From the NCBI GenBank assembly GCA_026770705.1, contig JANJGN010000189.1, positions 248,001-312,000 of the forward strand: a DNA stretch of 64,000 nt, in the 5' to 3' direction. The notes beneath the pieces were generated by a model that was not told where the DNA came from, ran no database searches, and saw only the letters and a program-made list of their open reading frames with translations. A program made the translations under genes and the position numbers. The stretch comes from Isurus oxyrinchus. Taxonomy: Eukaryota. Positions 31,410 to 59,913 of the stretch are shown here, piece by piece (position 1 is the stretch's first letter; each line of letters starts with the position of its first letter).

Positions 31410-33506
31410 TTTTTATATTCATTTATGGGATGTGGGTGGCGCTGTCTAGGCCAGAATTATTGCCCATCTCTAATAGCCCTTGAGAATGTGGTAGTGAGCT
31501 GCCGTCTTGAACTGTTGCAGTCCATGTGGGGTAGGTACACCCACAGTGCTGTTAGGGAGGGAATTGCAGGATTTGGACCCAGTGACAGTGCAGGAACGGC
31601 CGTATATTTCCAAGTCAGGATGGGGGTGAGTGACTTTGAGGGTAACTTCCAGGTGGTGCTGTTACCATGTATCTGCTGCCCTGTAATTCGAGATGGTAGT
31701 GGTTGTGTGTTTGAAGGTGCTGCCTAAGGAGTCTTGGTGAGTTCCTGCAGTGCACCTTGTAGATGGTACACACTGCTGCTACTGTGTGTCGGTTGTGCAG
31801 AGAGTGGATCTAGCGGGGCTGCTTTGTCCTGAGTGGTGTTGAGTTTACTGAATCTTGTTGGAGCTGCACTCATCCAGGCAAGTGGAGAGTCTTCCATCAC
31901 ACTCCTGACCTGTGCCTTGAAGGTGGTGGACAGGCTTTGGGGAGTCTGGAGTGAGTTACTCACTGCATGATTCCCAGACACTGATCTGCTCTTGTAGCCA
32001 CAGTGTTTATATGGCTAGTCCAGTTCAGTTTCTGGTCAATGGTAATCCCCAGGATGTTGATAGTGGGGGATTCAGCAATGGTAATGCCATTGAACATTAA
32101 AGGGCGATGGTTAGATTCTCTCTTATTGGAGATGGTCATTGCCTGACACTTGTCAGCGCAAGCCTGGATATTGTCCAGGTCTTGCTGCATTTGGACAAGG
32201 ACTGCTTCAGTATCTGAGGAGCCGTGAACGGTGCTGAACATTGTGCAATCATCAGTGAACATCCACACTTCTGTCCTTATGATGGAAGGAAGGTCATTGA
32301 TGAAGCAGCTGAAGATGGTTGGGCCGAGGACACTACCCTGAGTAACTCCTGCAGTGAAGTCTTGGAACTGAGATGATTGACCTCCAACATCCACAACTAT
32401 CTTCCTTTGTGCTGGGTATGGCTCCAACCAGTGGAGTGTTTTCCCTCTGTTATGATGTGGTAGATGATGTGTGCCAGGGGGACAAAATCCACAAGGGAAA
32501 CTTGGTCACACTATTACAACGGTTTTGCAATTTGTATTTATTATGAGATGTGTGCACTGAATTCAGGAGTAATGTGTCAACCAAGACATTTAGAGATCTT
32601 AAAAATTAAATTTCAATATTTATTAACAAAATACAAGATTTCAAGCACACACATAAGGATACGGTTACTACTATAACAAATCCTAAACTTCCTAATTAAC
32701 CTTAAAGATGGTGGACAGGCATTGGGAAGTCTGGAGATGAGTAGTACAACCCCATTTAAGGCAACAGTCCAAAATAGATTTTAGATTTAAAAACAAAACC
32801 AGCAAGTTAACACAGAACACACTTGAGAGTGGAATTCCAAATGGCTTTCTCAATCTATAGTCACTGAACATAACAGACCTATGGACAAATGCCTGGAGGC
32901 TTCTTCAAGGCTGATTCACACACTCTTGTTAGATTTTACATGGTCCCCAAAATAGCCTTTCATTCTCCTTTGTTGATGTTTCTCTCTCTTTGATATGTAA
33001 ATTTCATTGTTCCATATGTCTTTGGAATGATACATTTCCAATAATATAAAAACTTTCATGTTGCCAATGTTGTCAATAACCTTTGGGAAAAATAAACACA
33101 CTCCTTTGCCTTGCATATCGGCCTCGTTGTAAACAGACCAACAGCCCTTTGAAATCCAAACAATCCCGTCACTTATCTAAAAATGCAAATTCCCCTCACA
33201 CCTTACATGCTAAGTCAGCCTCCATGTTCACTCACTAGCATTTCAAGTACATTTCTACATCTAGCTTCTTTTGATAATCTCAAACTTGCAGTCTACCTGA
33301 CTCCAGATGTAATTAAGCCACACAGACAGACCCATCTACACTCACACCCATAAACCTAGTTTACAACAAACCAGGAAAATATTAAGCAAATTATTATACT
33401 TTCGTACCACCCCTGATTCCCATTGATTCCAGTTTTGCTCGGGCTCCTAGATGCCACACTCGGTCAAATGCAGCCTTGATGTCAAAGGCAGTCACTCTCA
33501 CCTCAC
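31410..33506 (-). mobile_element. 5'-truncated LINE (same family as 6870-9075) inserted in the 3' region of gene B
   Basis: AGVTQGSVLGPTIFSCFINDLP motif; flanked by CTTGT at 31405-31409 and 33507-33511. Confidence 0.85.
32448..33409. mobile_element. Solo-LTR-like element nested in the LINE
   Basis: TGTTATGA...TCGTACCA termini; the LINE sequence resumes collinearly on both sides. Confidence 0.65.
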
Positions 33507-33700
33507 CTTGTATTAACAGATGTAACATTATACATAATTCATAAGCTTCTCACAATCTTTTACAGCATGGAAAAAGGTGCAGCATTCAGAAAGCTCACTC
33601 AGAAACAATAAAAAAAAGTTGAGCAACATCATATTTCTGTTCATTACTATTTGGCCATGTTGGCTGCACACACCCCACAGCCCCGCTCCCTGTTTCACAC

Positions 33701-33949
33701 TCAGTTTTTCTGGAACCTGATCTGTGCGTATTCCGTGTCCTCGCTCCTGTGCACAGTCCTGTCACCGCCGGGCAGCTTTGAAAAGTTGATGTTGGCGTAG
33801 AGAAGCTCGTCGGGTTTGTCAGGGTTCCCATGTCCAACATCGCCTCCTACTGGACCTTCAGAGAGATCCCGGGGAGCTGGGGTCTCCCCCTCACTAGTTG
33901 TGTCTCTGGTTGTGTTCCGGGGCTCAGTAATCAGCACGTTCTGTTTACC
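33701..33949 (-). CDS. Gene B terminal exon, distal copy: ...DELLYANINF...DTEYAQIRFQKN* (ITIM + ITSM-like)
   Basis: Acceptor tttctctgtAG, phase 0, 249 nt; LxYxxI and TxYxxI motifs. Confidence 0.88.
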   Translation of the reverse strand, partial: GKQNVLITEPRNTTRDTTSEGETPAPRDLSEGPVGGDVGHGNPDKPDELLYANINFSKLPGGDRTVHRSEDTEYAQIRFQKN

Positions 33950-36900
33950 CTACAGAGAAATGGAAACAGAAGACATCCTCACATCAATTACTGGTACTGA
34001 TAGGGTTAAATTATTGTGCAGACTTGTTTAATTCTCTGTCTCCTATCGGATAAAAGGCACCACCTATGGCAGTGCAGTGCTCCCTCAGTACTGACCCTCC
34101 AACAGTGCAGCACTCCCTCAGTGCTGACCCTCCGACAATACAGCGCTCCCTCAGTACTGACCCTCTGTCAGTGCAGCACTCCCTCAGTACTGACCCTCCA
34201 ACAGTGCAGCACTCCCTCAGTGCTGACCCTCCGACAATACAGCGCTCCCTTAGTACTGACCCTCTGTCAGTGCAGCACTCCCTCAGTACTGACCCTCCAA
34301 CAGTGCAGCACTCCCTCAGTACTGACCCTCTGACAGTGCAGCACTCCCTCAGTACTGACCCTCTGACAATGCAGCACTCCTTCAGTACTGACCCGCTGTC
34401 AGTCCCGCACTCCCTCGGTAATGGCTCTGGTGAGTGACGGCTTGGATTCTGCACTCAGGTGCCTGGTGTGAGGCTCAATAACATGAACCTTGTAATCAGA
34501 GAGAGGATGAGAGAGAGGGATAGAGGAGGGATAGAGACAGAGTGTTATTAATCTATTAATGTTTGTATTATAAATGCAAACTGTCTTTTTAAACAGAGGT
34601 TTAGTCTGTGTGTGTGTCTGTGTGTATTTAAATTGGATTAAAGACAGCCAGTCTGGGTGCTTTGATGTATAGTAGTTTTGAGATGCAAACAAAGAGGTAA
34701 AGTGGTAATTTGCATTTTTAAATAAAACATTCAAAGTCTGAGAGTGAAATCTTAAACCAATCAACGTTTATATTACTAATAAAATTGATACGATGAAAGG
34801 GGATTTATTATTGGAAGAGATGGAGTTCAAAGGTCCTGATGATACATTGCGAATTTACCTTCAAACAGAAGCCATAAGACCATAAGACATAGGATGAGAA
34901 ATTAGACCATTCGGTCCATCGAGTCTGCTCCACCATTCATACATGGCTGATATGTTTCACAAACCCCATTCTCCCACCTTCTCTCCTAACCATTGATCCC
35001 CTGACCAATCAAGAGCCCATCAATCTCCATCTTCTTCACACTCAAGAGCTGGGTATAACTTGAGCAGTTTTGTGTGTGCAGAGCAGAGGCTTGTGACAGC
35101 AAAGCAGCTGTAAGCCTGCACCTGTCTGCAAAGGAACCAAAGTGAAAGGAACCTCATTTGGAATTTGTGAGGTGAAAATGCTTTGCCTAGTGTCTGCTTA
35201 AAGTCTATGGGTTGTCTTGGAGGAGATTAGTTTGAGAATTTGTTATACAGTTATGATAATACTAGTTTGTAGCCATGTGCATATGTTTAACTTGTGAAAA
35301 TTAATAAATGTCTCATTTAGATTGATATAAAATCATCTTGAGAACTGGTGGTCTTATTCCTGAATTTAGAGCTGCATCTCAAACATTCCACTGGGAAATA
35401 TAGGTTACGACAGCTGTTTAAAGTTTCCCTCTGGGATTTTAAGCAACAGCCTTTACCAGTTGCTGTGTCATAACAGAGAGACAGCATGATACTGAACCAT
35501 TGCTGACTCCACAGGTACAAATCAGTGGGTAACTGGGCTGGGAATCTGGGACATATGTTGTCTACACACTGAGATTGAAGCTTTGGAGTGAGTGTAAACA
35601 GCTCCTGTACCTGGTGCTTCACAGAGAGTGGACTGGGGTTCAATGCAATGTCACTGGTCCCTGAAACTCTCTCCTCCATCGCTGTCTTTCTCCTGCAATA
35701 ACAAAATATCACACTGTGGTTATCATATAGCAGAGAGTCAGTGCAGCACAGACACAGAGCCCACTGTAACCTTACACCAATGACTGGACTCTCTTTAAAT
35801 CACCTCTGCACAAAGCACAGAATCAAGACGCTCGACACCATCCAGGACAAAGCAGCCCGATTGATCCATACCACATCCACCACATTAAACATTCACTCCC
35901 TCCACCATGAACACACAGTGGCAGCAGTGTGTGTACCATCTACAAGATGCACTGCAGCAAATCAGCAAGGATCCTTCAACAGCACCTTCCAAACCCACGA
36001 CCTTTACCATCTAGAAGGACAAGGGCAGCAGACACATGGGAACACCACCACCTGGAAGTTCCCCTCCAAGTCACTCACCATCCTGACTTGGAAATATATC
36101 ACCGTTCCTTCACTGTCGCTGGGTTAACATCCTGGAATTCCCTCTCTAACAGCATTGTGGGTGTACCTACACCACATGGACTGCAGCGGGTGAAGAAGGC
36201 AGCTCACCACCACCTTCTCAAGGGCAGTTAGAGATTGGCATCAATGCGGACATCACCAGTGACAGCCACATTCGATGTAAGAATTAAAAACCTCACAGCT
36301 CAATGTATTTATTGTGACCCTGCTGCACACACGCCCTGTCGAAGGAACCTCTGTGGTTCCATTGTTAATCGAAGCAGATCAGAGTTACTGCAACAACTTG
36401 CATTTATATAGCACCTTCAATGTAGCAAAATGTCCCAAGGCTCATCCGGGGATTGTTAGTCACATTTCACCTGACTCTGAGGCACATGAGGAGATATTAG
36501 GGACAGGAGACCAACAGCTGAGTCAACAAAGTCAGTTATTAACGGGCATCTTAAAGGAGGAGCTGGAGATAGAGAATGAGAGACAGACACAGAAAGAAAG
36601 AGAGAGACAGAGAGGAAGAGAGAGAGAGAGAGAGAGACAGTGAATCTCACTCCCCAATGGCTCAGCATCCAGTCCTCTCTGGAGAAGCATTTCATTCCAA
36701 ACCACACCAACCGTAGCCCAATTCCATCCCTTCCTCCCTCTCTCCCCCTCTCCCCCAGTGGGTTGTTTCCTGTTCCCAGGAATCTCAATCCCTACCCGCA
36801 CACCCACACCTCCTCACTCCCACTCCCCATTTCTCATTCAGTTATTCTCAAACCTGATCTGTGCGTATTCCGTCTCCTCTTCCCTGTGGACAGACCCATC

Positions 36901-39900
36901 ACCACTGGACACCCTCAAAACTTGGGGATTGGCGTAGAGAAACTCTTCAGGTTTGCCGGGGTTCCCAAGTCCAGCATCGCCTCCCACTGCACCTTCAGAG
37001 GGAACCCGGGGAGCTGGGGTCTCCCCCTCGCTAGTTGTGTCTCTGGTTGTGTTCCAGGGCTCAGTAATCAGCACGTTCTGTTTACCCTACAGAGAAATGG
37101 AAACAGGAGACATCCTCACATTATTTACTGGCACTGATAGGGTTAAATTATTTTGCAGCTTCGTTAATGTCAGTCGTGTTTCAGTGGGTTTAACTCTCTC
37201 TCCCATGTCTTATGAAAGAAACCACCTATGGCAGTGCAGTGCTCCCTCAGGACTGACCCTCCAACAGTGCAGCACATCCTCAATAGTGACCCTCTGTCAG
37301 TCTCGCACTCCCTCAGTACTGACCCTCTGTCAGTCTCGCACTCCCTCAGTACTGACCCTCTGTCAGTCTCGCACTCCCTCAGTACTGACCCTCCGACAGC
37401 GCAGCAAAAACCTCAGTACTGACCCTCTGACAGTGCAGCGCTCCCTCAGTACTGACCCTCCGATGGTGCAGCGCTCCCTCAGTACTGACCCTCCGACAGT
37501 GCCGCGCTTCCTCAGTACTGACCCTCCGACAGTGCCGCGCTTCCTCAGTACTGACCCTCCGACGGTGCAACTCTCCCTCAGTACTGACCCTCCGACTGTG
37601 CAGCACTCCCTCAGTACTGACCCGCTGTCAGTCTCACACTCCCTCGGTAATGGCTCTGGTGAGTGACGGCTTGGATTCTTCACTCAAGTTTCTGGTGTGA
37701 AGCTCATTAACATGAACCTTGTAATCAGAGAGAGGATGAGAGAGAGAGAAAGAGAGAGAAAGAAAGGGAGGTTGGGATAGAGAGAGAGACTGGAATTTGA
37801 GAGGTGAAAATGCCTGGAATCTGCTTAAAGACTATGGGTTGTCTTAGAGGAGATTAGTTTGAGAATTTGTTAAAAAGTTATGATAATACTAGTTTGTAGC
37901 CATGTGCATATGTTTAACTTGTGTAAATTAATATATGTCTCATTTAGTTTGATATAAACCCATCTCGAGAACTGGTGGTCTTATTCCTGAATTTAGAGAT
38001 GCATCTCAAACATTCCACTGGGAAATATAGGTTATGACAGTTGTTTAAAGTTTCCCTCTGGGATTTTAAACAACAGCCTTTACCAGTTGCTGTGTCATAA
38101 CAGAGAGACAGCATGATACTGAACCATTGCTGATTCCACAGGTACAAATCAGTGGGTAACTGGGCTGGGAATCTGGGACATGTGTTGTCTACACACTGAC
38201 ATTGAAGCTTTGGAGTGAGTGTAAACAGCTCCTGTACCTGGTGCTTCACAGAGAGTGGACTGGGGGTCAATGCAATGTCACTGGTCCCTGAAACTCTCTC
38301 CTCCATCGCTGTCTTTCTCCTGCAATAACACAATATCACACTGTGGTTATCATATAGCAGAGAGTCAGTGCAGCACAGACACAGAGCCCACTGTAACCTT
38401 ACACCAACGACTGGACTGTCTCTTTAAATCAGTTCTGCACAAAGCACAGAATTAAGAAGCTTGACACTATCCATGACAAAGCAGCCCGATTGATCGACAC
38501 CCCATCCACCACATTAAACATTCACTCCCTCCACCATGAACACACAGTGGCAGCAGTGTGTGTACCATCTACAAAATGCACTGCAGCAACTCAGCAAGGC
38601 TCCTTCAACAGCACCTTCCAAACCCACGACCTCTACCATCTAGAAGGACAAGGGCAGCAGACACATGGGAACACCACCACCTGGAAGTTCCCCTCCAAGT
38701 CACTCACCATCCTGACTTGGAAATATATCATCGTTCCTTCACTGTCGCTGGGTCAAACTCCTGGAACTCCCTCTCTAACAGCACTGTGGGTGTACCTACA
38801 CCACATGGACTGCAGCGGGTCAAGAAGGCATCTCACTACCTCATTCTCAAGGGGCAATTAGGGAATGGGCAATTAGTATTGGCCACGCCAGTGACAGTCA
38901 CATTCGATGAAAGAATTTAAAATCTCACAGCTCAGGAGGAAGCCACTCAGCCCATCGTGCCTGTGCTGGCCCTTTGTAAAAACTGTCCAATTAATCGTAA
39001 ACAAATGTTTATATTAAAATCAAGTTAAATCTTCAGACTTACTTTCTCACACAGATGAAGATGAAGATTCCAGCCAGGAAAACACTCAACATGATCCCAG
39101 TCGTGAACAATCCTACTGTCCATTTACTGGAGTCTCTACCTGTAAAAACAGCCATTAATTACTGCACTACAGGTTTACAATGATGCTCCGATGTATCTCG
39201 AGAAGCGATACACTCACTCAGTGTTTAAATACTCATTCTCGGGCAATGCTGACATTTATTGTCCATCCCTAGTTTCCCCTTGAGAAGGTGGTGGGGGGTC
39301 TTCCTCCTGAACCACTGGTTTGTCCCAAATTGGGAGACCAGTTCAGAGGGCAGGTAAGAGTTAACCATGTTGGTGTTTGAGACTGGAGTCACATATACAC
39401 CCAGACCTGTTAAAATGGACAGGTTTCCCTCACTAAATGTGTAATTATATCTTTAATTTCTATATATATGTATCAACTAACATCACTAAAATAATCATTT
39501 ATCACCTCATCTTCACACTGTTGTTTGTGGGATCTTGCTCTGCACAAATCAGCTGTTGCGTTTCTCAACGTAATCTATGTAACATTTATATATAATATTT
39601 ATCAATGTAATCTATGTAACATTTATATATAATATTTATCAATGTAATCTATGTAACATTTATATATAATATTTATCAATGTAATCTATGAAATGTTTAT
39701 ATATAATATTTTATCGTTTGGGAGGAGAACCTGAGTATTGCTGAGAAAGGACATTTTGTCAAAGCTTTCTGTCTTGCACCCAATGAAGCAGCTTATCTGG
39801 GGGAGAGGGTTCCAGATTTCCACTCCCCTTTGTGTGAAGAAGTGCTTCCTGACATCACCCCCTGAACGGCCTGGCTCCAATTTGACCAAGTGTTGCCATT

Positions 39901-42900
39901 GTCACATGAGGCCAGACGATTCAAAGCTTGGTCAAAGGGGTCAGTTGTAAAGAGCATCTTAGAGGAGGTAGAGAGAGAGGTGGAGAGGTTGAGGGAGGGA
40001 ATTCTCGAGTTTAGGGATCAATCCAGCTGAGTGGAGATCGATCCTGAGCGAGTCTTTCACCTTTGACCCACAGATACATCTTGAACATGGCTTCCCCGTG
40101 TGGGTTTTGAACCGAGCAGGATGCAATCACTCCCCCCTCATCCTGGGGTCTCATCAGGGTGAGGGAACCAGTCACCAGATGCCCATCTCTGACCTGCCAC
40201 GACACAAAACCTCCGTGTGTTTGGTTACCACTGATGTTGGCACTGGGCAGGTGCCAGGTGAGGTCTCCGGGTGGGTTGGAGTTGGCCACACAGATGCAGG
40301 TGACCCCCTCTGACCTCCGAGTGCACTCTGACTGCTGGGAAATCTCCGGCTTATCTGAGGAGGGAAGGACAACAATGAGACAACTTCATAGCAAAGTTAG
40401 AGCGTAAGATAGAATCTTCACACTGAAACACTCATTCCTGCCTTTGTTACCTCCGTACTCGACTATCCCAACACTCTCCTGCCCGACCTCTCATCTTCCA
40501 CTCTCCGGAAACATCAGCTCATCCCAAACTCTGCTGTCCCCATGTCCTAACTCACACCGAGTCCCGTTCAGACATCACTCCCTGTTGGTCACTGAGCTAC
40601 ACTGGCTCCCGGTCCGACAATGCCACAATTTTAAAATTATCATCGTTTCAAATCCCTCCTTACTCCCTCCCTATCTCTGTAACCTCCTCAAGCCCCTACA
40701 ACCCTCCCTATCTCTGTAACCTCCTCCAGACCCTACAACCCTCCCTATCTCTGTAACCTCCTCCAGACCCCACAACCCTCCCTATCTCTGTTACCTCCTC
40801 CAGCATCTACAACCCTCCCTATCTCTGTTACCTCCTCCAGCCCCTATAACCCTCCCTATCTCTGTTACCTCCTCCAGCCATCACAACCCTCCCTATCTCT
40901 GTAACCTCCTCCAGACCCCACAACCCTCCCTATCTCTGTAACCTCCTCCAGCATCTACATCCCTCCGAGGTCTCTGCGTTCCTCCAATTCCGGCCTCTTG
41001 ACCATCCCCCGATTCCTATCGCTCCACCATTGGCAGCCGTGCCTTCAGCTGCCTGGGCCCCGAGCTCTGGAATTCCCACCGTAAACCTCTCCATTTCTAT
41101 CTCTCTCCTCATTTCAGACACTCCTTAAAATCCGGCCTCTTTCTCTGAGCTTTCAGTCCCTGTTCTAATATCTCCTTATGTATCTCGGAGAGGCGCAGGG
41201 TGAAAAAAGCAGGGAGGTGATGCTAGTTATGCTAATCCACAGCAAGGAAGCTGCCCTCAGACAGAAAGTGTTTGAGTTTTAAGCAGAGACAGGGGGAGTA
41301 AAATGCTTACATTGTACGTTCAGGTGGGTGATGTTGGAGGTGCTGTTACCCACTGGGTTCCTCGCTGTGCAGTAGAAACCTGCATCATTCTCCCGTGTTA
41401 CAGGAGTGAAGGAGAGAGTGCGGCTACTTGTGTTTAACTGGGTGCTGGTGTTCCCCTCGATCCTGAACCAGGTGTAATGAGATATCGGTGGGACACTTTC
41501 ACTGGAGCAGGTTAATGTGATATTGCTTCCCTCTCTTATCCCACCTGAGGATCTGCTGATGGACACCATCGTCTCCTGTGGGGGATCTGGAACAAAGACA
41601 GAGAACAATCAGCAGGTAATCCCCACACCCCACAGCTCTCCGAAATCTCTGCGCTCCTCCAATTCCGACCCCTTGCACATTCTCCCATTCCCATCTCTCC
41701 ACCATTGGCGGCCGTGCCTTCAGCTGCCTGGACCCTAACCTCTGGAATTCCCTCCATCATTTCTCACCTCCTTCGGACAAAATCTGACCCCGAGTCACAT
41801 TAGGAGATATTAGGAGAGGTGAGCAAAAGCTCGCTGAAAGCAGGAGGTTTTAACGGTGTGTCTTAATGGTTTTAAGGAGCATCTTAATGGTTGAGAAAGA
41901 GTTGGAGATTGTGTATCTCCCGCGCATCCCCCCTTGCAAATTCCTCTCCCTCCCAGAGCAATGTAAGGGTCCCTCCTGTCTTCACTTTTCACCCCACCAG
42001 CCTCCTCATTCAAAGGATCATTCTCCGCCATTTCCGCCAACTTCAGCATGATGCCACCACCAAACACATCTTCCCTTCACCACATCCGCCCCCCCCTCAC
42101 CCCCCCCCCACGTTGGCATTCCATAGGGATCATTCCCTCCAGGACACCCTGGTCCACTCCTCCATCACCCCTAGCATCTCAACCCTCTCCGATGACATCT
42201 TCCCATGCATTTGCAGAAGGTGCAACACCTGCCACTTTACTTCCTCTCCCCTCACTGTCCAATGACCCAAACACTCCTTCCAGGTGAAGCAGCGCTTCAT
42301 GCAGACTTCCTTCAATATAATCTACTGCATTCACTGCTCCCAGTGTGGTCTCCTCTACATTGGAGACACCAAACACAGACTGGGTGATCGCTCTGATGAA
42401 CACCTTCGGTCTGTCCACAAGCATGACCCAGACCTCCCTGTCGCTTGCCATTTTAACACCCCACCCTGCTCTCATGCCCACATGTCCGTCCTTGGCCTGC
42501 TGCATTGTTCCAGTGAAGCCCAACACAAACTGGAGGAACAGCACCTCATCTTCCGACCTGGCACTTTACAGCCTTCCGGTCTGAATATTGAGTTCAACAA
42601 TTTCAGATCATGAACTCTCTCCTCGATCTTCACTGCTTTTTGAACCCTTTTTTTATGTATTCATTTTAATTGTTTTATTTGTTGACTGTTTTCCACTTAT
42701 TTTTATTATTATTATTTGAAATTCATTTCCATTTTTATTGATTGTTTTATCCACAGATTTTAGTCTATTTTCGATCTTTATTCCCTCCACCGTCCCCTCC
42801 CCCTGCCACACCCCCACGAGGGCCATCTGTCTCTTTCCAGAGTGCTTACCCTGGTCCGCCCATTATCACACTCTGCTTAATGTCACCATTAGCACCTCCT

Positions 42901-45900
42901 TTATCCAATACCACCACTGTTAACAACCCTTTGACCTTTTGTTTATGACATCTTCCACAATCTCTCCATTGCCTCCACCTATCGCTGGTTTTCTATCCAG
43001 CTCCACCTGTCCCATCGCCCCGCCTTAGACAGGATATATTTCACCACATGTCTACTTCCCTTTAGCTCTGAAGAAGAGTCATACAGACTCCAAACGCTAA
43101 CCCTGTCTTTCTCTCCACAGATGCTGCCAGATGGTCAGAATCAGCTGGATGGACAGAAAGACCAATGAGTGGCTTAGATCAAGAGGAGACGTTCAGCAAT
43201 TAAAAGGGTTGTTCAGGACAGTTAGAGAGAGAAAGTTCATCAAGTATGGAGATTGGAAACGAAGATCTGACAGCCTTGTCCTCACAACCATTGAAGGAGA
43301 AACTGAGAGCAAAAACAGAAAGGGAGAGGAAAAATTGGGTGTGTGGATAACGTGGACTGAGCGAGGATTGAAGAAAACTGGATTAAAAACAACACGATCC
43401 CAATGGCTCCATGGAGACCACGGAGACAACAAACAAACAAATGTATCTCCACACTCACATTCCACAGTGATGGTTATGAACCCCTCCACTGCTCCATGTT
43501 CATTCTCTGCCACACACTGATAGTCTCCAGTGTCCCTGGATGTAACGTGAGGAATCACCAACCACAGCTCATTGTTGGAACTTGTTCTGTTCATTGGGAC
43601 ATTAAGATGTCGCCACGTCAGGTTAGAAGCTGGGAAGCTCTCGACAGAGCAGATTATCACTGCAGAATTCCCCTCAATTATATTGATCGATGAAGCGTTA
43701 ATCATATCAAGAGAAGTAATTGATGAGTTCCGTGGTGCATCTAAATACAAATAAAGGTTTCATTGTGAGCAAACACAGTGCACAGCAAGACTCCAGGTAT
43801 CATCTCTCTCCATCTGGTGTCTATGTGCATGTCAAGGCTTCTTTCCCCATTATGATTTTCTATGTCACTATTTGTAACAGACACTGCCAGTGTGTTCCTT
43901 TTTGCATATTCATGGGAAGTGGATGTATCTATCTAGACCAGCATTTATTACCCATCCCTAATTGCCCTTGAGGAGGTGGTGGTGAGTTTTTCACCCCCAC
44001 AGAATTCCCAGCCTCTGACCGGCTCCTGTAGCCACAGTATTTATGGCCGGTCCAGTTAGTTGTTTGGTCAACATCCCCCAGGATGTGGATCGTGGGGGAT
44101 TCAGCGATGTGAAAGTGATTGAACATCAAGGGGAGATGGTTAGATTCTCTCTTGTTGGAGATGATCACAGCCTGGTACTTGTGTGGTGTGAACATTACTT
44201 GTCATTTCTCAGCCCAAGCTGAGTGTTGCTCAGCTCTTGCTGCGTGTGGATATGTAAACTGTCACGCTGTAATTACAGCCTTCCACCAGAGGAGACACTG
44301 TTGGGCTAGAAGAAAAGAAAGTGTCTTTCACATGATCAGGATGTTCACGGAGATTTCACCATGGAGGAATTGCTTTGGAATAGTGGGGTATTGGGTGATA
44401 AACCTACAATTCACTGTTCAGGAGGTTGCTCCATCCAATTCAGTGTCTTGATGATCTGGAGTTTACCTTCCTTCAACACAGAATCAGAGCTGCTACCGAG
44501 ACTCGAGTGCAGCACTGAGACANNNNNNNNNNNNNNNNNNNNNNNNNNNNNNNNNNNNNNNNNNNNNNNNNNNNNNNNNNNNNNNNNNNNNNNNNNNNNN
44601 NNNNNNNNNNNNNNNNNNNNNNNNNNNNNNNNNNNNNNNNNNNNNNNNNNNNNNNNNNNNNNNNNNNNNNNNNNNNNNNNNNNNNNNNNNNNNNNNNNNN
44701 NNNNNNNNNNNNTAACTCACGTTCCACAGTGATGGTTATGAACCCCTCCACTGCTCCATGTTCATTCTCTGCCACACACAGATAGTCTCCAGTGTCCCTG
44801 AATGTAACGTGAGGAATCCCCAACCACAGCTCATTGTTGGAACTTGTTCTGTTCATTGGGACATTAAGATGTTGCCACGTCAGGTTAGAAGCTGGGAAGC
44901 TCTCGACAGAGCAGATTATCACTGCAGAATTCCCCTCAATTATATTGATCGATGAAGCGTTAATCATATCAAGAGAAGTAAATGAGAGATTCTGTGGAGC
45001 ATCTAAGAACAAATCAAGTGTTTAATGTGAGCAAGCACTGTGCACAGCAAGACTCCATGCATCATGTCTCTGTATCTGATGCCTGTGTGCATTTCTAGGC
45101 ACCTTCCCTCAAGATAAGTTCCTATGTCACATTTACAATGGGCACTGCCTATGTAAACTGTCACACTGCAGGAGCATTCTCCCACCAGAGACCCTGCCCA
45201 TCCAGATTTAAAGAAACTCCCTTTCACATCCTCAGGATGTCCCCAAGGGCTTGACAGGCAATGAATTATATTTAATCGATGGAGCACTGAGGGGTAAATC
45301 TACAATTCTCTGTTAAGGATTTTGCTCATCCAATTCAGGGTCTTGTTGATCTGGAGTTTACCTTCCTTCAGCACAGAATCGGAGCTGACACCGAGACTCC
45401 AGTGCAGCACTGANNNNNNNNNNNNNNNNNNNNNNNNNNNNNNNNNNNNNNNNNNNNNNNNNNNNNNNNNNNNNNNNNNNNNNNNNNNNNNNNNNNNNNN
45501 NNNNNNNNNNNNNNNNNNNNNNNNNNNNNNNNNNNNNNNNNNNNNNNNNNNNNNNNNNNNNNNNNNNNNNNNNNNNNNNNNNNNNNNNNNNNNNNNNNNN
45601 NNNNNNNNNNNNNNNNNNNNNNNNNNNNNNNNNNNNNNNNNNNNNNNNNNNNNNNNNNNNNNNNNNNNNNNNNNNNNNNNNNNNNNNNNTGTGTGTTGTC
45701 TGTGTGCGCGTGTGCATGTGNNNNNNNNNNNNNNNNNNNNNNNNNNNNNNNNNNNNNNNNNNNNNNNNNNNNNNNNNNNNNNNNNNNNNNNNNNNNNNNN
45801 NNNNNNNNNNNNNNNNNNNNNNNNNNNNNNNNNNNNNNNNNNNNNNNNNNNNNNNNNNNNNNNNNNNNNNNNNNNNNNNNNNNNNNNNNNNNNNNNNNCA

Positions 45901-48900: not shown

Positions 48901-51900
48901 GCCATTTTGGACGGAGATAGGGAAACATTTCTTCACTCAGAGGGTGGTCAATCTGTGGAATTCTCCATCACAGAGGCTGTGGAGGCCGGGTCACTGAGTG
49001 TATTCAAGAAAGAAACTGATAAATATTTTGATATTAGGGGCATCAAAGGGTACGGAGAGAAAGCAGGAATAAGGCTTTGAGATAGAGGGTCAGCCTTGAT
49101 CATATTGAATGGCGGAGAAGGCTTGAAGGGCTGAATGTCCTAATCCTGCTCCTAGTTTCTATGTACCTAGGTATCTATAGAACTATCTCTCTCCGTGTTC
49201 TATTCTCATGTGACCTTGAGTAACTGATGATAAATACTATCTATTTACATTGTTAATATTAAACTTTTATACTACATCACCCCCAAAATCTTTGACATCA
49301 ATGAAGACAATATTTATATTATCCTATATTGTCTTTTAAGTTCAACCTTGGCCCCCTCTGCCCTATCAGGTAGGCATAAACAATCCCAAGGCTCAATACA
49401 GGAAGAGCTCTCCCTGGTCAATATCACTAATAAAAAAGGACCTGTTTTGTCTTCAACCCAGTGATGTTTGTGGGATCTTGCTCTGCACATTGTAACCTAT
49501 TACAGCTAATATAGAATCAAGGGTTTCAGTACTTACCTTGTACAGTTAATACGAGGGTCCGCTCCGATGAAACAGATGGATATCTCACTCTGCAGCTGAG
49601 AGTGTGTCCGTGGTGTTTGAGTGATGGGATCAGGGTCAGAACAGAAGTATAGGTCAGAGTGACACCATGCTGAGTTACAGTGTTTGAGACTGATCCAGGT
49701 ACGTCAGTGGGAGTGTCCCAGGTTAAGACAGGTGCTGCTGTTCCATTGCACGTTGTGTTGAAGGTGCAGCTTACATCCACACGCTTCCCTGCAATAATTT
49801 CAGCAGGGAATATCATGGGTTTATCTGTGAAATCTAACAGACAGAGAATGGATCCTTTTAGAGAAATATAACGTGAAGCATCAGTTCAAATAGAAATCAC
49901 AGTCCCACAAGAAAAAGCACTTTTACAAGGATGATATCAGAACTGAGAGATTACAACGATCAGGAGAGACTTTCCTATTTTCAGACTTAGTGGAGTTTCA
50001 GTCACTCAGATGAATTCACTTCCACTTTGAGACAATTGAATTGACAATCCCGGGTGAGGGTGGGGGATCAGCTCACAGTTCCTGACACACTGGCTTGTTA
50101 CTTTCTCCGAAATCTGCCAGATTTAAATTCTATCCTGTTCCCAGCAGGAGAGAATCCATTTGAACCAATCACTGAACCGGCATTTAAAGCAGATGATCAG
50201 GTTATTGATCACATTGCTGTTTCTGGGAGCTTCCTGTGCACAAATTGGCTGCTGTGTTTCCCATATTACAACAAGGGCTACATTTCAAGAATTATTTCAA
50301 TGGTTGTGAATCCATTTGCGACGTCCAGAGGTGGTGAAAGGCGCTATAGAAATGCAAATCTTTCTTTTGTTGATATGTAAGAATTTTAAACAGGATTAGG
50401 GAGATTGATGTAAGTGGATAACCTGATAACATTGATGGACACAGTCAATACATTTAATCACTGATATTAAAGTGAGTATTAGAGGTTGTTTTAGGACTGA
50501 ACTGGAAGCTATCACCAGGTTATTGAGAACCAGACAGTGTGTTATAATTAGCTGTGTTTTGTGTTAATATGTAAACGTCACAGTTTGTGTTATTTCCCAT
50601 TGAGTGTTGAATGTGAATTGTTGAGTAATTATAACACAGCACTTACCAGAAACGTGAAGCTGGGTTACAGGGTAATAGTTATGGCCCGGACCATTGTCAA
50701 ATTCTATTCTGAAAATATAAGTTCCTGCATCTTCCCGTCTGATGTTGTTTATAATCAGGGAACAGTCGCCATCTTTCAGGTCTCCAGACAGCCGGGTCCG
50801 ATGGTGGAACCGTGGTAACTCGTGACTGTGATCCTTGGAGTGAAAGGCAATGGGAGCCCAGGGAATCTGTTTCTCATTATTAAACCAGACTCCACCTCGC
50901 GGTTGGTTTTCCGGACACAATGGATAACTGTAATGACATGGAATCTGTACACACGAACCTTCCTGTGCTGTCACCTCTCGTGGACTGTCACCTTTCCACT
51001 CTTGTGAGGGTTTATCTGGGGAGAGAAATCTCAATATTTAACTCTGGATGGTTTGTGGATCCACTAGACTCAAAATTTACAGATGAGGCTGAATTGGGGG
51101 GATGGTCAATACTGAGGAGAATGGCAACAAATTATTTTGGCAGGAAGAATAGAAAAACAGGATATTATTTAAATGGAGACAGGCTGCAGAATGCAGTACA
51201 GAGGGATCTGGGTGTCCTTGTACATGAATCACAGAAAGTCAGCATTCAGGAACACCACGGAATGAGGAAGGCAAGTGGAATGTTGGCCTTTATTGCAAAG
51301 GGATGGGGTATAAAAGGAGGGAAGTCTTGCAGCAGCTGCACAGGGCGTTGGTGAGATTGTATCAGGAGCAGTGTGTACAGTTCTGGTCTCCTTACTTAGG
51401 GAGGGATAGAGTTGCTTTGGAGGCAGTTCAGAGGAGGTTCACTGGGCTGATTCCTGGGATTAAAGGGTTTGTCCTGTGAGGAAATGTTGAGCAGGTTGGG
51501 CCTGTATCCATTGGAGTTTAGAAGAATGAGGGGTGACCTTATTGAAACATATCCGATTCCGAGGGGGCTTGACAGGGTGGATGCTGGGAGGATGTTTCCC
51601 CCTCGTGGGGGAATCTAGAACCAGGGAGCACAGTTTCGGAATGAGGGCTCTCCCATTTAAGACTGAGATGAGGAGGAATTTCCTCTCTCAGAGGGGCGCT
51701 AGCCTGTGGAATTCTCTTCCCCAGAGAGCAGTGGAGGCTGGGCCATTGAATAGACTCAAGGCTGAGTGAGGCAGGTTTTTGATCGACAAGGGAGTCAAGG
51801 GTTTGGGGAACAGGCAGGAAAATGGAGTTAAGGCCACAACCAGATCAGTGAGGGCTGGCTCGAGGGGCCGAATGGCCTGCTCCTGTCCCTATTTCTTATG

Positions 51901-54900
51901 TTCCTACATTCTTACCTTCTTAAAATATTAAAGCTGCAGAATAAACATGCAAGTGACTGACCCGCTCGACCCACCTTCCATCTGGGGCTGGAGGAGGTTA
52001 CACAGATAGGGAGGTTTGTGGGGGCTGGAGGAGGTAACAGAGATAGGGAGGGCTGTAGATACTGGAGGACATTACGCAGATAGGGAGGGTGGTAGGACCT
52101 GGAGGAGGTTGCAGAGATAGGGAGGGCTATAGGGATTTGAGGAGTTTATGGAGATGGGGAACGTGTAGGGACTGGAGGAGGCTGCAAGGGCAGAGAGGGT
52201 TTTAGGGGCAGGAGGAGTTTACAGGGATAGGAAGAGTTGTAGGGGCTGGACGGATTGCAGAGGTAGGGAGGGTTGGAAAGGCTGGTGGAGGTTTCAGAGG
52301 TAGGGAAGGCTGCAGGGACTGGAGGAGTTTACAGAGATGGAGGAGTTTTTGGGGCAGGATGGGGTTACAGAGATAGGGAGGGTTGTAGGGGCAGGACGAG
52401 GTTACATAGATATGGAGTGTGGCTGGGGCTGAGGGAGGCTACAGAGATAGGGAGGGTTATAATGGCTGGAGGAGTTACAGAGATGAAGGAAACTCTTAGG
52501 GACTGGAGGAGGTTACAGAGATAGGGAGGGTTGTAGTGGGCTGGAGGAGGTTACAGAAATATGAAGGGTTGTAAGAGATGGACCAGCTTACAGAGATAGG
52601 GAGAGGTATTCGGTCTGGAGGAGTTTGCAGAGATAGTGGAGGTTGTTAGGACTGGAGGAGGCTACAAATATCGCGAGGGTTATCGGGGCTTGAGGAGGTT
52701 AAAGAGATAGGGAGGGGTGTTGGGTCCGGAGGAGTTTGCAGTGATAGGAATGGTTTTCGGGATTGGAAGAGAGTACTGAGATAGGAGGGTTGTAGGGACT
52801 GGAGGAGTCTCCTGAGATAGGGAGGGTTGTAGGGACTGGAGGAGGCTCCTGAGATAGGGAGGGTTGTAGGGACTGGAGGAGGCTCCTGAGATAGAGAGGG
52901 TTGTAGGGACTGGAGGAGGCTCCTGCGATAGGGAATGTTGCCGTGGATGAAGATAAAGGAGGAGATTACTGTAATAGGGAGGAAAAATATTCAAAAATTT
53001 GGACATTGAGACTTTGCTTGACCAGGAGCCAGTCTCGGTCATCGAGCAGAGCGGGTGATAAGGGAACGGGACTTGGTGTGAGTAAGGACGTGGTCAGCAG
53101 TTTTGGATGGCCTCAAGTTTATGGAGTGTAGAGCATGTGTTGGAACAGTCGAGTCTGGAGGTAATGAAGGCGTGGATGAGGGTTTCAGCAGCAGATGAGC
53201 TGAGACAGGGTGAAGTCGTACGACGTTATGGAGGTGGAAATAGACAGTGTTAGTGAGGGCGCAGATATGAGGCCGGAAGCTCATCTCAGGATCAAATGGG
53301 ACAACAAAGCTGTGAACAGATTGGCTTCAATCTCAGAGAGCTGCCAGGGAGAGGAATGGAGTTGGTAGCGAGGGAACAGAGTTTGGATCGAGGAATGAAG
53401 ACAATGGCTTCAGTCTTTCCAATATTTAATTGGAGGGAATTTCTGCCCATCCAGTACTGGATGTCGGATAAGCAGCCTGATAATTTAGCAGCAGTGGAGG
53501 AGTCGAGAGAGGTGGTGGTGAGGTAGAGCTGGGGATCCTCAGTGGACAGGTGAAAACTAATACTGTTCAGATGATGCTGCAAAGCCATTGCAAGTGATTC
53601 TCTGGCTACGATGAGATGGATAAGAATGGAGCCAGGGGAGAGCAGTCCCACCCAGCTGGACGACAGTGGAGAGGGGTTGGAGGAGGATGGTGTGGTCGAG
53701 CGTGTCAAAGGCTGCAGACAGATCGAGAAGGACGAGGAGGGAAAGTTGACCTTTGTCACAGTCACACAGGATGCCATTTGTGACCTTGATAAGAGCTGTT
53801 TCAGCACAGTGGCTGGGGTGGGAACCTGATTGGAGGGATTCAAACATGGAGTTCCGGGAAAGATGGAACCGGATTCGGGAGATGGAAACACGTTCAAGGA
53901 CTTTGGAGGGGAAAGAGAGGCTGGAGATGGGACGGGGGTTTACACGGACAGTGTGAGGGGTGGAAGGTGTAGTGGGGAGGAGACACTTCACTCAGGGGGG
54001 AGGTGTCATCACCCCTCAGCTCGGTTTACGTTACAGCTATGATGTGGATTCAATCACACACAATAAGCTCATGGATCTGGGAGCAGAAATAGACAAATCA
54101 TTAAAAATAGTGACGCTGGTTAACACGGCCAAAAAACAAGCAAATCAAACACTATTATTTCCCATTGAGTGTTGGATGTGAATTGGTGAGTAATTATAAC
54201 ACAGCACTTACCAGAAACGTGAAGCTGGGTTTCAGGGGAAACGTTATGTCTCGGACCATTGCCAAATTTTATCGTGAAAAAATAAGATCCTGCATCTTCC
54301 CGTCTGATGTTGTTTATAATCAGGGAACAGTCGCCATCTTTCAGGTCTCCAGACAGCCGGGTCCGATGGTGGAACTGTGATAACTCGCGACTGTGACCCT
54401 TGGAGTGAAAGGCTATAGACCATTTAGACCATTTGTTCTGTATGTATCTTCTCATTTTCCAGATTCCGACCTGTGGTTTCTTTACCAAATCTGATGGATA
54501 ACAGTAATGACATGGAATCTGTACACACGAACCTTCCTGCGCTGTCACCTCTCGTGGAGTGTCACCTTTCCACTCTTGTGACAATCCAACTGGGGAGAGA
54601 AATATCAATATTTAACTCTGGATGTTTTGTTGATCCACTAGACTCAATATCCACCCCCTCCATCACTGGGGCACAGTGGCTGCAGTGTGGAGCATCTACA
54701 GGACACACAATGAACTCCACAAGGTATCACACCAGATGGAAGAGAATCCTGGACACAAAAGCGGAAAAGTTCATTCTACATTGGTTCATGGTCCTCAGGA
54801 CCCTGTTTGTGCACAAGCCTGCTCTCCAACAGAACTGAAGTTGGGGACAATGCATTTGGAATTCCACTGTCCGGGGCATTGGGTTAACTTGCTGATTTTG

Positions 54901-57900: not shown

Positions 57901-59913
57901 GGTGTGGCCTTCTGCAGGCACCAAGGAAATGCCCAGCTTTCCACCAAGCCATCAAGGCTTGTGGCAGAAAGGGCCATTGACAGCGGCAGGGCACTAGAGC
58001 AAAGGCTGATGCAGCTACAAAGAGCCGTGCGCTGATCCAAACAATCCCTGCACAACGGGGAAACTTCAAGCAATAAGGATGACCATCCGCTATCCCATCA
58101 GGAACATATACATGTGGTGACTGACAAACCAGGAATTGGCGATGATGTACACGACGAGACTAGGAGCGGTGATCGATATTCCACCTCTCACACATATCCT
58201 GACGTGGCTTGCCAATAAATTGTGGATTGTGGTCTTTATTGATCTCTCTGGGCACATCAAATAAACTGAAAATGTTCCCATAGGGGTGGGATTTTCTGGC
58301 CCCACCCACTTCCAAGATTGTCTGGTCCGGCTGAAAGCCAATGGATTTATGTCTGTCCCAGTCTCAGAAACTATCCCATAAACACAGTTCATGACATAAC
58401 ATTGAAATATGCAGAAAGATTCAACAATATTGGCAGTTTCATGGGAGCTGCAACATTACACCTGCAGGAGAATGCAAGTCTGTCAGACTCCTTGCATTAA
58501 AATTAATACAATCCAACTTTGCCACGCTATCTTGAGCCTTAAATGGCCAATAATTTCTATGCCTTCCAGGTTCATTTGCTCTCTTCTAATTTTGGCTGTG
58601 CATCTCTCTCTGTTGAACTTCCTCTCGGGATCCCATCCCCTGCTATATTACTTTAAAGCCTTCTCAATTGCATCAAGGGTGTAATGTCAATTGAAACCAG
58701 GGACAACATCAAAGAATGACAATCCCACAGATCAATGTGAGCAATTAAAGAAACCTCCAGACAATTTTGCCACCACAAGATCTCGACATAACAGCAGATT
58801 ACCTCTACGCTTTAGAGACTCAAATATTCAACAGATCTATACACTTATGTAATTGTCAAGAAATATGAAAATGATACCAGGAACCTCTTGTTCCCTGTCC
58901 TTCTCAAAGATCCATCCCTGCAGCAGGAGCCTGAAGAGTTACTGAAGAGTGGGTCTTAATTTATCAGATTGTAGAATGATCCGGAATAGAAGGATGCCAT
59001 TTGGCCCATCGAGCCTGTGCTGGGCCTTTGAAAGATCTGTCCAATTAGTCCCACTCTAACCTCTGCTCTCTCCTCCACAGCCCTGCAAAATGTCCCCTTC
59101 AAGTATTTATCTAGTTCCCCTTCTGAAAGTTCCTGTTGAATCTGCTGCCACCAGCCTTTCAAGCAGTGAGTCAATGGTCTCTCTCTGAGCTGCAAAGTGC
59201 TAATGTTCTGAGAACTTTAAACACTGCAGCAGATCAGAGACAATCATGATAACTCAGAATATTTGACAGTTTTACACACAGACAGCTTTACCTTTCTTCT
59301 CTCTTTCAGTTATCTTGCTCCCTTATTGAAGTATCTAGCATGGTGAGAATGGACAGTAAGTGTGACACTGAACAGCCTGTCTATTCTAGGAGCTGCTGTG
59401 TTGTCTTCATGGGAAATTCTGACTAAAATCAGCAATAGACACAAAATTTCAGGGCATTGTTATCCGAGTCCCAGCATCAGGATAGACTTCATCCCCCAGT
59501 TGGTATCCCTGATTCTCTATTCAGCCGATCGCTCCCCTGTCACTGGATGAACTACACTGCCTCCCAGTCCAGCAATGACTCAAATTTCAAATTCTCATCA
59601 TCGATTTCTTACCCCACCATCCCCCCTCTACACTCCCAATCCCTGTAACCTCCTCCAACCCTAAAACCCTCTGAGATCTCTGCTCTCCTCCAATTCTGCT
59701 GTCAGACAGGGAGTCAGTGTATATCAGTGAGCACAGGGGTGATGGGTGAATGGGACTTGGTGTCAGTTTGTACACTGGATCACTGCTGAATCGGTTCCCA
59801 ATCACACTCAATAAGAATGATCTTTTACAAAGACTATTAGCCATAAACCTGTCCGAGCTGATGATGTTATTACCTTGGAGAAGTGACAGGAGGAAGTAGG
59901 ATTTCCCGATCAT
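33701..59913 (-). CDS. Gene B: putative inhibitory Siglec-like receptor (MAG-type scaffold), leader-V-V-C-C-C-C-C-TM-cytoplasmic tail, 881 aa with either tail cassette
   Basis: Eleven coding exons per isoform with consistent GT-AG sites and phases (1,1,1,1,1,1,1,1,2,0), 2646 nt open; Tyr motifs in the last exon. Confidence 0.82.
35611..35692 (-). CDS. Gene B juxtamembrane cytoplasmic exon, distal copy (K)RKTAMEERVSGTSDIALNPSPLSVKHQ
   Basis: Acceptor ttattgcAG, donor CAG|GTACAG; 82 nt, phase 2/0. Confidence 0.75.
35820..36290 (+). mobile_element. LINE 3' fragment, duplicated at ~38450-38920
   Basis: LDTIQDKAARLI...SFTVAG..SWNSL. Confidence 0.75.
36838..37086 (-). CDS. Gene B terminal exon, proximal copy: ...EEFLYANPQV...ETEYAQIRFENN* (proximal ITIM degenerate, ITSM-like kept)
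   Basis: Same acceptor, phase and length as 33701-33949; open frame; minus-strand AATAAA at 36308-36313. Confidence 0.82.
   Translation of the reverse strand, partial: GKQNVLITEPWNTTRDTTSEGETPAPRVPSEGAVGGDAGLGNPGKPEEFLYANPQVLRVSSGDGSVHREEETEYAQIRFENN
38238..38319 (-). CDS. Gene B juxtamembrane cytoplasmic exon, proximal copy (K)RKTAMEERVSGTSDIALTPSPLSVKHQ
   Basis: 82 nt, phase 2/0; matches the phase-2 donor of the TM exon. Confidence 0.82.
39043..39139 (-). CDS. Gene B TM exon (G)RDSSKWTVGLFTTGIMLSVFLAGIFIFICVR(K)
   Basis: Acceptor gtttttacAG, donor AA|GTAAGT; uncharged hydrophobic helix; not in the ORF track. Confidence 0.88.
39570..39716. repeat. AT-rich 37-bp tandem repeat, ~4 copies
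   Basis: gtaatctatgtaacatttatatataatatttatcaat starting at 39570, 39607, 39644, 39681. Confidence 0.92.
40061..40354 (-). CDS. Gene B membrane-proximal Ig exon (MAG domain-5 type)
   Basis: YKPEISQQSECTRRSEGVTCICVANSNPPGDLTW...ASCSVQNPHG; C-x8-CxC pattern; 294 nt, phase 1/1. Confidence 0.88.
41311..41586 (-). CDS. Gene B C2-set Ig exon
   Basis: YPPQET...EGSNITLTCSSESVPPISHYTWF...DAGFYCTARNPVG; 276 nt, phase 1/1. Confidence 0.92.
41915..43127 (+). mobile_element. Penelope-like element fragment (GIY-YIG endonuclease)
   Basis: NIIYCIHCSQCGLLYIGDTKHRLGDR...VACHFN...KLEEQHLIFR; related terminal pieces at ~3150-3300 and ~10225-10322. Confidence 0.88.
43128..43440 (+). mobile_element. RTE-type LINE 3' fragment
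   Basis: RISWMDRKTNEW...RERK..KYG....TTIEG and an (AAAC)n tail. Confidence 0.6.
43459..43740 (-). CDS. Gene B C2-set Ig exon, copy 2
   Basis: APRNSSITSLD...IEGNSAVIICSVESFPASNLTW...DTGDYQCVAENEHG; 282 nt, phase 1/1. Confidence 0.92.
44721..45002 (-). CDS. Gene B C2-set Ig exon, copy 1
   Basis: DAPQNLSFTSLD...DTGDYLCVAENEHG; 282 nt, phase 1/1; near-identical to copy 2. Confidence 0.9.
45940..46985 (-). mobile_element. Degraded Gypsy integrase fragment
   Basis: LTMMDMTTRFPEAIPLGTITAKVV...FFIHYGLPLEIQSDQGS (rve core). Confidence 0.8.
47110..49165 (+). mobile_element. CR1 LINE ORF2 3' portion, degraded
   Basis: KSFYKYVK, YFGSVFTKED, LQLYKVLVRLH, ERVQRRFSRLIPG and CR1 3' tail; many stops. Confidence 0.9.
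49537..49833 (-). CDS. Gene B Ig C-type exon (Siglec domain-2 type)
   Basis: 297 nt, phase 1/1; about 7 nt and 3 aa differences from 13334-13630 by manual count. Confidence 0.92.
50647..51015 (-). CDS. Gene B V-set exon V2
   Basis: DKPSQEW...DAGTYIFRIE; 369 nt, phase 1/1; essential Arg present. Confidence 0.93.
54212..54589 (-). CDS. Gene B V-set exon V1 (essential Arg replaced by Thr)
   Basis: VGLSQEW...DAGSYFFTIKF; 378 nt, phase 1/1, open frame. Confidence 0.92.
59874..59913 (-). CDS. Gene B leader exon MIGKSYFLLSLLQ
   Basis: Paralog of 23704-23743; donor CAAG|GTAAT. Confidence 0.85.

Follow-up and report, generated by a model that had tools for sequence, protein, structure and literature searches.

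L-MAG and S-MAG show that one ectodomain of the Siglec fold can be joined to different tail isoforms. LILRB1, PIR-B and SIRP-alpha are multi-ITIM receptors, with repeated tyrosine motifs in a single tail. In IgM, exon C-mu-4 is composite: it combines an internal donor with a short read-through end, and a poly(A) signal lies downstream. Siglec-XII is a precedent for two V domains. Among the closest described receptors are the CD33-related Siglecs (CD33, Siglec-5, -7 and -9). The shark gene analysed here shares with them V-set domains, the inner of which bears their arginine, followed by C2 domains, and its distal tail corresponds in order and pattern to LHYASL and TEYSEI, the motifs given in passages of PMC2722167 and PMC9570199.

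The window, that is the whole stretch of 64,000 nucleotides that we analysed from Isurus oxyrinchus, carries this gene on its minus strand, with two similar cassettes at the 3′ end. These cassettes are copies of a 105-codon cytoplasmic module (an 82-nt and a 233-nt exon), and we consider it likely that they are spliced in series; their origin and action are reconstructed below. The papers searched, mostly from outside the subscription journals, contain no account of tail stacking or of the expansion of this family. In the whale shark genome paper, Siglecs are mentioned once, as a jawed-vertebrate family (PMC8455134).

A Siglec-like gene on the minus strand

The gene is ordered as a leader, two V-set exons, five further Ig exons and a TM exon, followed by the two cassettes. 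The coding part of the leader (signal peptide) exon, MIGKSYFLLSLLQ (59874..59913), has the same start as in RefSeq shark proteins. The outer V-set exon (V1, 54212..54589) has a threonine, within window 54230-54290, in place of the essential F-strand arginine of Siglecs. The inner one (V2, 50647..51015) keeps this arginine, its YIFRIEF aligning with YFFRVE of Siglec-5. Next come a first C2-set exon (49537..49833), an Ig exon (44721..45002) and its 97% copy (43459..43740), a further Ig exon (41311..41586) and the membrane-proximal one (40061..40354). Four of these five exons were scanned with profiles, the fifth being the 97% copy. The TM exon (39043..39139) is uncharged and ends in phase 2, and its joint to an 82-nt exon is present in RNA-type run X3.

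The N-terminal V-set domain is most like the V domains of Siglecs, with matches to the Pfam V-set and Ig_CD22 profiles; the best PDB matches of the V domains are Siglec-5, Siglec-7 and CD33, at E about 1e-13. The gene also has C2-set domains and one TM, which is uncharged. An ITIM followed by an ITSM-like motif occurs in the distal module only, where LLYANI and TEYAQI match the consensus set out in parts of PMC2722167 and PMC13358205. Judged by its domains and tail motifs, the gene is Siglec-like and resembles the CD33-related type.

Other features of the window touch on its neighbourhood. Satellites dominate the output of the repeat search, and an intron between two Ig exons contains a decayed retroelement-like fragment (window 47150-46100, minus strand), which from resemblance we take to be integrase-like. 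A second Siglec-like gene, also on the minus strand (window 23743-11610), is composed of a leader, V, V and C exons, a 5′-truncated Ig exon (13009-12859) and an Arg-TM; over 7.2 kb, it is 94% alike to the 5′ portion of the main gene. A short TM exon with an arginine in the membrane span (ILGIRAVIF) and a tyrosine-less tail occurs twice, at window 63199-63060 and 11744-11610, on the same strand. Since such activating-type ends, with Arg-TM and no tyrosine, belong to neighbouring genes, the cluster looks like one of paired receptors, as these arginine-bearing neighbours suggest.

Two copies of a cytoplasmic module

Module 1 starts with an 82-nt exon (38238..38319, phase 2 to 0). Its second exon, of 233 nt (36854..37086, phase 0 to 2), carries FLYANP and TEYAQI and is internal, with a donor CAG|GTTTGAG at 36854|36853 that is used in RNA-type joints and in RefSeq models. 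A GT-AG intron of 1161 nt (35693..36853) leads to module 2, which is made of an 82-nt exon (35611..35692) and the true last exon (33701..33949) with the ITIM LLYANI and the ITSM-like TEYAQI. Behind it, two AATAAA starting at 32624 and 32542 (32537..32624) are the gene's candidate poly(A) signals; a contig of run X1 that ends at 32528 is a weak hint in their favour. Neither tail exon has a family in a Pfam profile search, and the predicted tail is probably disordered, short-motif sequence.

The two 82-nt exons differ by 1 base and have both kept their AG and GT. The stretches from acceptor to stop (37086-36838 and 33949-33701, 249 nt each) differ at 37 of 249 bases. Self-BLAST aligns the cassettes at 93% over 1149 nt and at 86% over 366 nt, so the likeness is not due to chance. 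The first-pass annotation had already read from the letters a TM exon, 82-nt exons, FLYANP, LLYANI and TEYAQI motifs and splice signals, all of which are borne out, with their coordinates, on the minus strand; the AATAAA that it placed behind the proximal copy (36308-36313) is there too. Its description of two units, each an 82-nt exon plus a 249-nt terminal exon, stands insofar as both copies exist; the proximal exon, though, is in the main an internal one of 233 nt and not simply terminal, because its stop codon ends 16 nt beyond an internal donor.

An assembly artefact, in which merged haplotypes would double a single cassette, is extremely improbable. It is true that the family is spread over many contigs with copies 98-99% identical, and total copy numbers may be inflated for that reason. 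The two units here, however, differ by 14% in their last exons and also by a large indel, and the same arrangement is seen again at 16 of 81 loci, among the RNA joints and in two further species.

Serial joining of the modules in RNA-type contigs

Four runs, all of assembled contigs and presumed to be of RNA type, were aligned to 35560-37140. All four (4/4) contain a joint 35691|36853 with CT..AC ends, the minus-strand form of GT-AG, at contig depths of 5054, 59, 8.8 and 29. This evidence comes from 3 samples, 3 studies and 2 organisms and applies to the family, not to this particular gene copy; the short side of the joint measures 25-29 nt, below the 31-nt bridging threshold. In run X6, one contig contains the YANP stretch 36853-36979 and 29 further letters, at a depth equal to that of the joint; it differs from the window in 5 of 127 letters, where paralogs are 90-99% alike. 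The joined 22-mer has no match in the genome. At the level of the family, the RNA-type joint shows serial splicing.

The joint of module 1 to module 2 is implicit in automatic annotation already. RefSeq proteins of white and basking shark read ...TEYAQIR-RKTAMEER..., from module 1 into the second 82-nt exon, and 18 of the 68 database proteins retrieved read through this joint, all of them from white or basking shark. The first-pass annotation had instead proposed two alternative 3′ ends, one used in place of the other; this is contradicted by the joining of the proximal exon to the distal cassette in 4/4 runs and in the RefSeq models.

The donor falls within the TEYAQIR codons, in phase 2. Together the two exons of the module measure 82 + 233 = 315 nt, with phase 2 at both ends: it is a symmetric exon module, a multiple of 3. 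The frame is open from the TM to the distal stop, and the predicted tail of 216 residues has tyrosines at 80, 103, 185 and 208, in the motifs YANP, YAQI, YANI and YAQI, respectively. That the phases permit proximal/proximal, distal/distal and proximal/distal use was correct arithmetic. The frameshift expected earlier from including both 82-nt exons does follow when they are joined directly; if the 233-nt exon lies between the two, the reading frame remains open as far as the distal stop.

Regulated skipping could switch between three tails: a full one with 4 tyrosines, a distal-only one with the ITIM and TEYAQI, and a proximal-only one that is frameshifted and ends with TEYAQIRVNRTC* in the last exon. 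We regard it as possible, though on balance doubtful. The window sequence permits all three tails, and the RefSeq isoforms of one white-shark gene show them all (X1/X2/X6, X4/X5 and X3, respectively): isoforms X4 and X5 drop the first module, and isoform X3 skips the second 82-nt exon and stops early, with YANP and TEYAQI only. All these isoforms are computed models, in a family whose genes are nearly identical, and they may be real or mis-mapped. Against skipping, the joint of an 82-nt exon to the ITIM exon is also made by one-module paralogs (32 of 81 loci), on account of which short reads can be mis-assigned, and the proximal-only joint is absent among the joints listed. Joints of an 82-nt exon to a last exon are assignable to neither the proximal nor the distal copy, as the flanks are identical. 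Skipping is compatible with serial modules as a minor layer. The earlier idea of one ectodomain with different tails may survive through exon skipping, as in the RefSeq isoforms, rather than through alternative 3′ ends.

The module family across the genome

A genome search with the distal exon gives about 400 candidates, the top 40 of them with 98-100% identity, and a 23-mer of the tail has 209 exact genome matches. We examined 80 loci, which lie on two contigs and account for 98 of the 100 matches listed; 17 of these loci were extended. The sample is biased toward modules with the 23-mer. Including the window, these 81 loci hold 133 modules. A TM with one ITIM module is the arrangement at 32/81 loci, and the window-like order of YANP then ITIM at 16/81. 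Two YANP modules are present at 6/81, three modules at 4/81 and a mixed arrangement at 1/81. The rest have no TM in view: ITIM exons at 2/81, and two-module YANP pieces at 20/81. Genes have between 1 and 4 modules; in the three- and four-module loci tested, 3 with four modules (8 tyrosines) and 1 with three, the joined frame is open in 4/4, with a single stop at its end.

Six candidates among the two-module YANP pieces were extended upstream, with no TM or same-strand Ig exon found within 15 kb; for this reason we call these pieces orphans (L007, L020, L023, L031, L048, L066 and 14 similar loci). At three loci extended downstream they lie ~5 kb ahead of the leader of the next gene, and they are apparently carried along in the duplication unit.

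Exact end patterns amount to 120 of internal type, 152 of ITIM type and 97 of YANP-last type, which are lower bounds as matches and may include haplotype duplicates. Last-type tail ends number at least 249 when matched exactly, a figure that counts orphans and possible haplotype duplicates as well. These counts suggest a very large Siglec-like expansion in lamniform sharks.

Two single loci are unusual. L110 (G000:C2, near 177209400) consists of a single YANP-type last exon, without an AG acceptor, on a contig of chromosome scale, and no other family exon was found within the 20 kb examined. At L070 with L091 (G000:C71, near 1504800), a YANP-type last exon with AT precedes an ITIM-type exon with TEYTKI, and no 82-nt exon lies between them.

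The donor follows the position of the module. Across the 133 modules of the 81 loci, those that precede another 82-nt exon have GT in 51/51 cases, with G at +5 in 50. The other YANP-type modules have AT in 31/31, through a silent change of the Arg codon. ITIM modules have GT in 51/51, and their +5 base is C (50) or A (1), never G. On contigs C52, C71 and C121, which were listed in full, the next module end follows within 3.6 kb for 67 of 70 donor-type ends, as against 0 of 151 last-type ends; among the 3 exceptions, one is at a contig edge and one precedes a variant ITIM exon (L024). Module counts are not independent, because the copies descend from few events: that the donor tracks module position is a pattern and not a set of independent events. 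For the same reason, a Fisher test on the ends of the three contigs was not taken as a probability.

Probable relics of a former last exon

In most bins, the intron behind internal modules is ~80-89% alike to the 3′ flank of YANP-type last exons; it did not align to the flank of ITIM-type exons. Module 1 therefore appears to derive from a last exon of YANP type, its UTR included, and not from a copy of the local module 2. The proximal stop and AATAAA look like relics of such an exon. Its likely relic end, FENN-stop (36838..36853), now forms the first 16 nt of the intron, and the intronic AATAAA (36308..36313), a putative signal, was likely inherited from the ancestral 3′ UTR.

It is unlikely that the proximal exon also serves as a last exon, the donor being ignored, so that the protein ends in FENN*, with cleavage after the AATAAA at 36313 and a regulated, ITIM-less short tail as the outcome. 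Stop and AATAAA are both intact here, and 27 of 31 internal modules within genes retain the AATAAA; yet 20 of 20 orphan pieces retain it just as well, and we rejected its conservation as proof of use on this ground. The donor is weak, with only 6 of 9 consensus positions matched. One intron contig of run X4 (36651-36768) lies in the putative UTR, its depth of 13 being like that of the joint (8.8), although contig depth is not a measure for ranking isoforms. On the other hand, the joint skips the region in 4/4 runs, and positions 36779-36831 are covered by no contig in any of them, which counts because a joint skips that stretch. Contigs of runs X1 and X5 cross the intronic AATAAA, contigs as such being unable to show RNA ends. 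The proximal-stop sequence, FEHN or FENN, occurs in 0 of the 68 retrieved proteins. We keep serial splicing as the main route; given the X4 contig, a minor terminal use of the proximal exon may exist beside it.

The first-pass annotation had also derived YANP from an ITIM at this locus. The direction of the change is supported by outgroups, but its place is not: YANP is a family-wide tail type, with 192 exact matches, including an isolated copy on contig C2, and is present in white and basking shark as well. One pairwise alignment suggests a compensated +1/-1 frameshift as its origin. Of the annotated relatives in catshark, smooth-hound, epaulette, bamboo, zebra and whale shark, those that extend into the tail carry a single YxxI module there, a tail that resembles ELHYASLNF and TEYSEV of human CD33, as given in parts of PMC9570199 and PMC2722167. 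Among the annotated proteins searched, YANP and stacked modules are limited to lamniform records, and both appear to be lamniform-specific.

RefSeq models of basking shark (P0010, P0036, P0007 and P0014) comprise some with seven or eight V domains in a row, as well as a divergent Siglec ectodomain that is found with the same TM and tail, in YANP and ITIM forms. The latter suggests tail exchange between subfamilies.

Proposed origin and action

We infer that the ancestral shark tail was a single module with ITIM and TEYAQI. In lamniforms, the YANP variant would have arisen and a unit of 82-nt exon, last exon and 3′ UTR would have been duplicated. The GT within the codons for Arg and Phe that follow TEYAQI would have gained G at +5 and become a working phase-2 donor, fitting the phase-2 acceptor of the next 82-nt exon. 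Owing to this match in phase, the unit would be stackable by unequal crossover, up to the present 1 to 4 copies per gene, with the last modules left without a good donor (AT, or C at +5).

Once phosphorylated, the distal pair of LLYANI and TEYAQI would bind SHP-1 and SHP-2, as described for Siglecs in passages of PMC13358205 and PMC2722167. Each extra module would add one more ITSM-like site, and a YANP site instead of an ITIM. YANP would fit the preferences of Grb2 (Asn at +2) and Crk (Pro at +3). According to sections of a preprint (bioRxiv 10.64898/2026.08.18.744962), Grb2 prefers Asn at +2, which YANI and YANP have in common, and Crk prefers Pro or Leu at +3, a feature insufficient alone; in the light of these preferences, YANP may be a changed site rather than a dead one. 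The number of modules, and perhaps their skipping, would set the strength and the mix of the signal.

Stacking may instead be a neutral by-product of a fast-turnover tandem family, in which extra modules are spliced in, are tolerated because the tail is disordered and do nothing distinct; we see this as a tentative reading, with less than even chances. In its favour, module number is freely variable, orphan two-module pieces are amplified alongside, and pN/pS is near or above 1: purifying selection on the coding part was undetected, with means of 1.23 for internal and 0.85 for ITIM modules. As a test of function this ratio is uninformative, ranging over 0.74-1.71 at 1-5% divergence among non-independent copies. 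Neutral stacking is at odds with the sharing of stacked YANP modules by white and basking shark, and with tyrosine motifs that are nearly invariant among variable neighbouring residues. Stops are present in 0 of 93 exons of the three non-orphan classes vs 2 of 40 orphan exons, too few for significance. An intact frame was rejected as proof of use, orphan exons being stop-free in 38 of 40.

If serial modules do act in signalling, a wider picture can be drawn, which we offer as speculative. Lamniforms would have well above 100 Siglec-like genes with a copy-number-variable signalling end and a one-base switch from last to internal exon. Their tails would bear 2-8 tyrosine motifs, in ITIM-bearing or ITIM-free form, and skipping would yield full, ITIM-only-module and ITIM-free versions; the strength and the sign of the signal would be diversified as freely as ligand specificity.

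Comparison with known systems

The nearest named proteins are RefSeq models of white and basking shark, with 84-87% identity to the proximal exon. Those of Carcharodon carcharias (XP_041037215-21, XP_041037234, XP_041037157) and Cetorhinus maximus (LOC144671602, LOC144671591) are Siglec-like or MAG-like models with the same TM, modules and joint. They come from automatic annotation only, whereas the Isurus genome displays arrays of up to four modules together with orphan module pairs.

The locus offers a clear natural example of a terminal exon that has probably turned internal and repeatable, and in which the former stop and poly(A) signal can still be recognized. Near-identical receptors with 1-4 signalling modules form a natural series, to which it belongs, and with such a series one can test directly how motif number affects inhibitory signalling. 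Module stacking may tune the strength of the receptor signal.

Compared with CD33-related Siglecs, whose cited human tails have one ITIM/ITSM pair, the shark pair is a stackable two-exon module, and its internal copies have YANP where the ITIM would stand. Unlike in multi-ITIM receptors and IgM C-mu-4, close paralogs within a single shark genome differ in their number of modules, between 1 and 4, and use of the read-through end is putative here. Finally, in contrast to L-MAG and S-MAG, the shark default seems to be the serial inclusion of duplicated modules and not a choice of ends.
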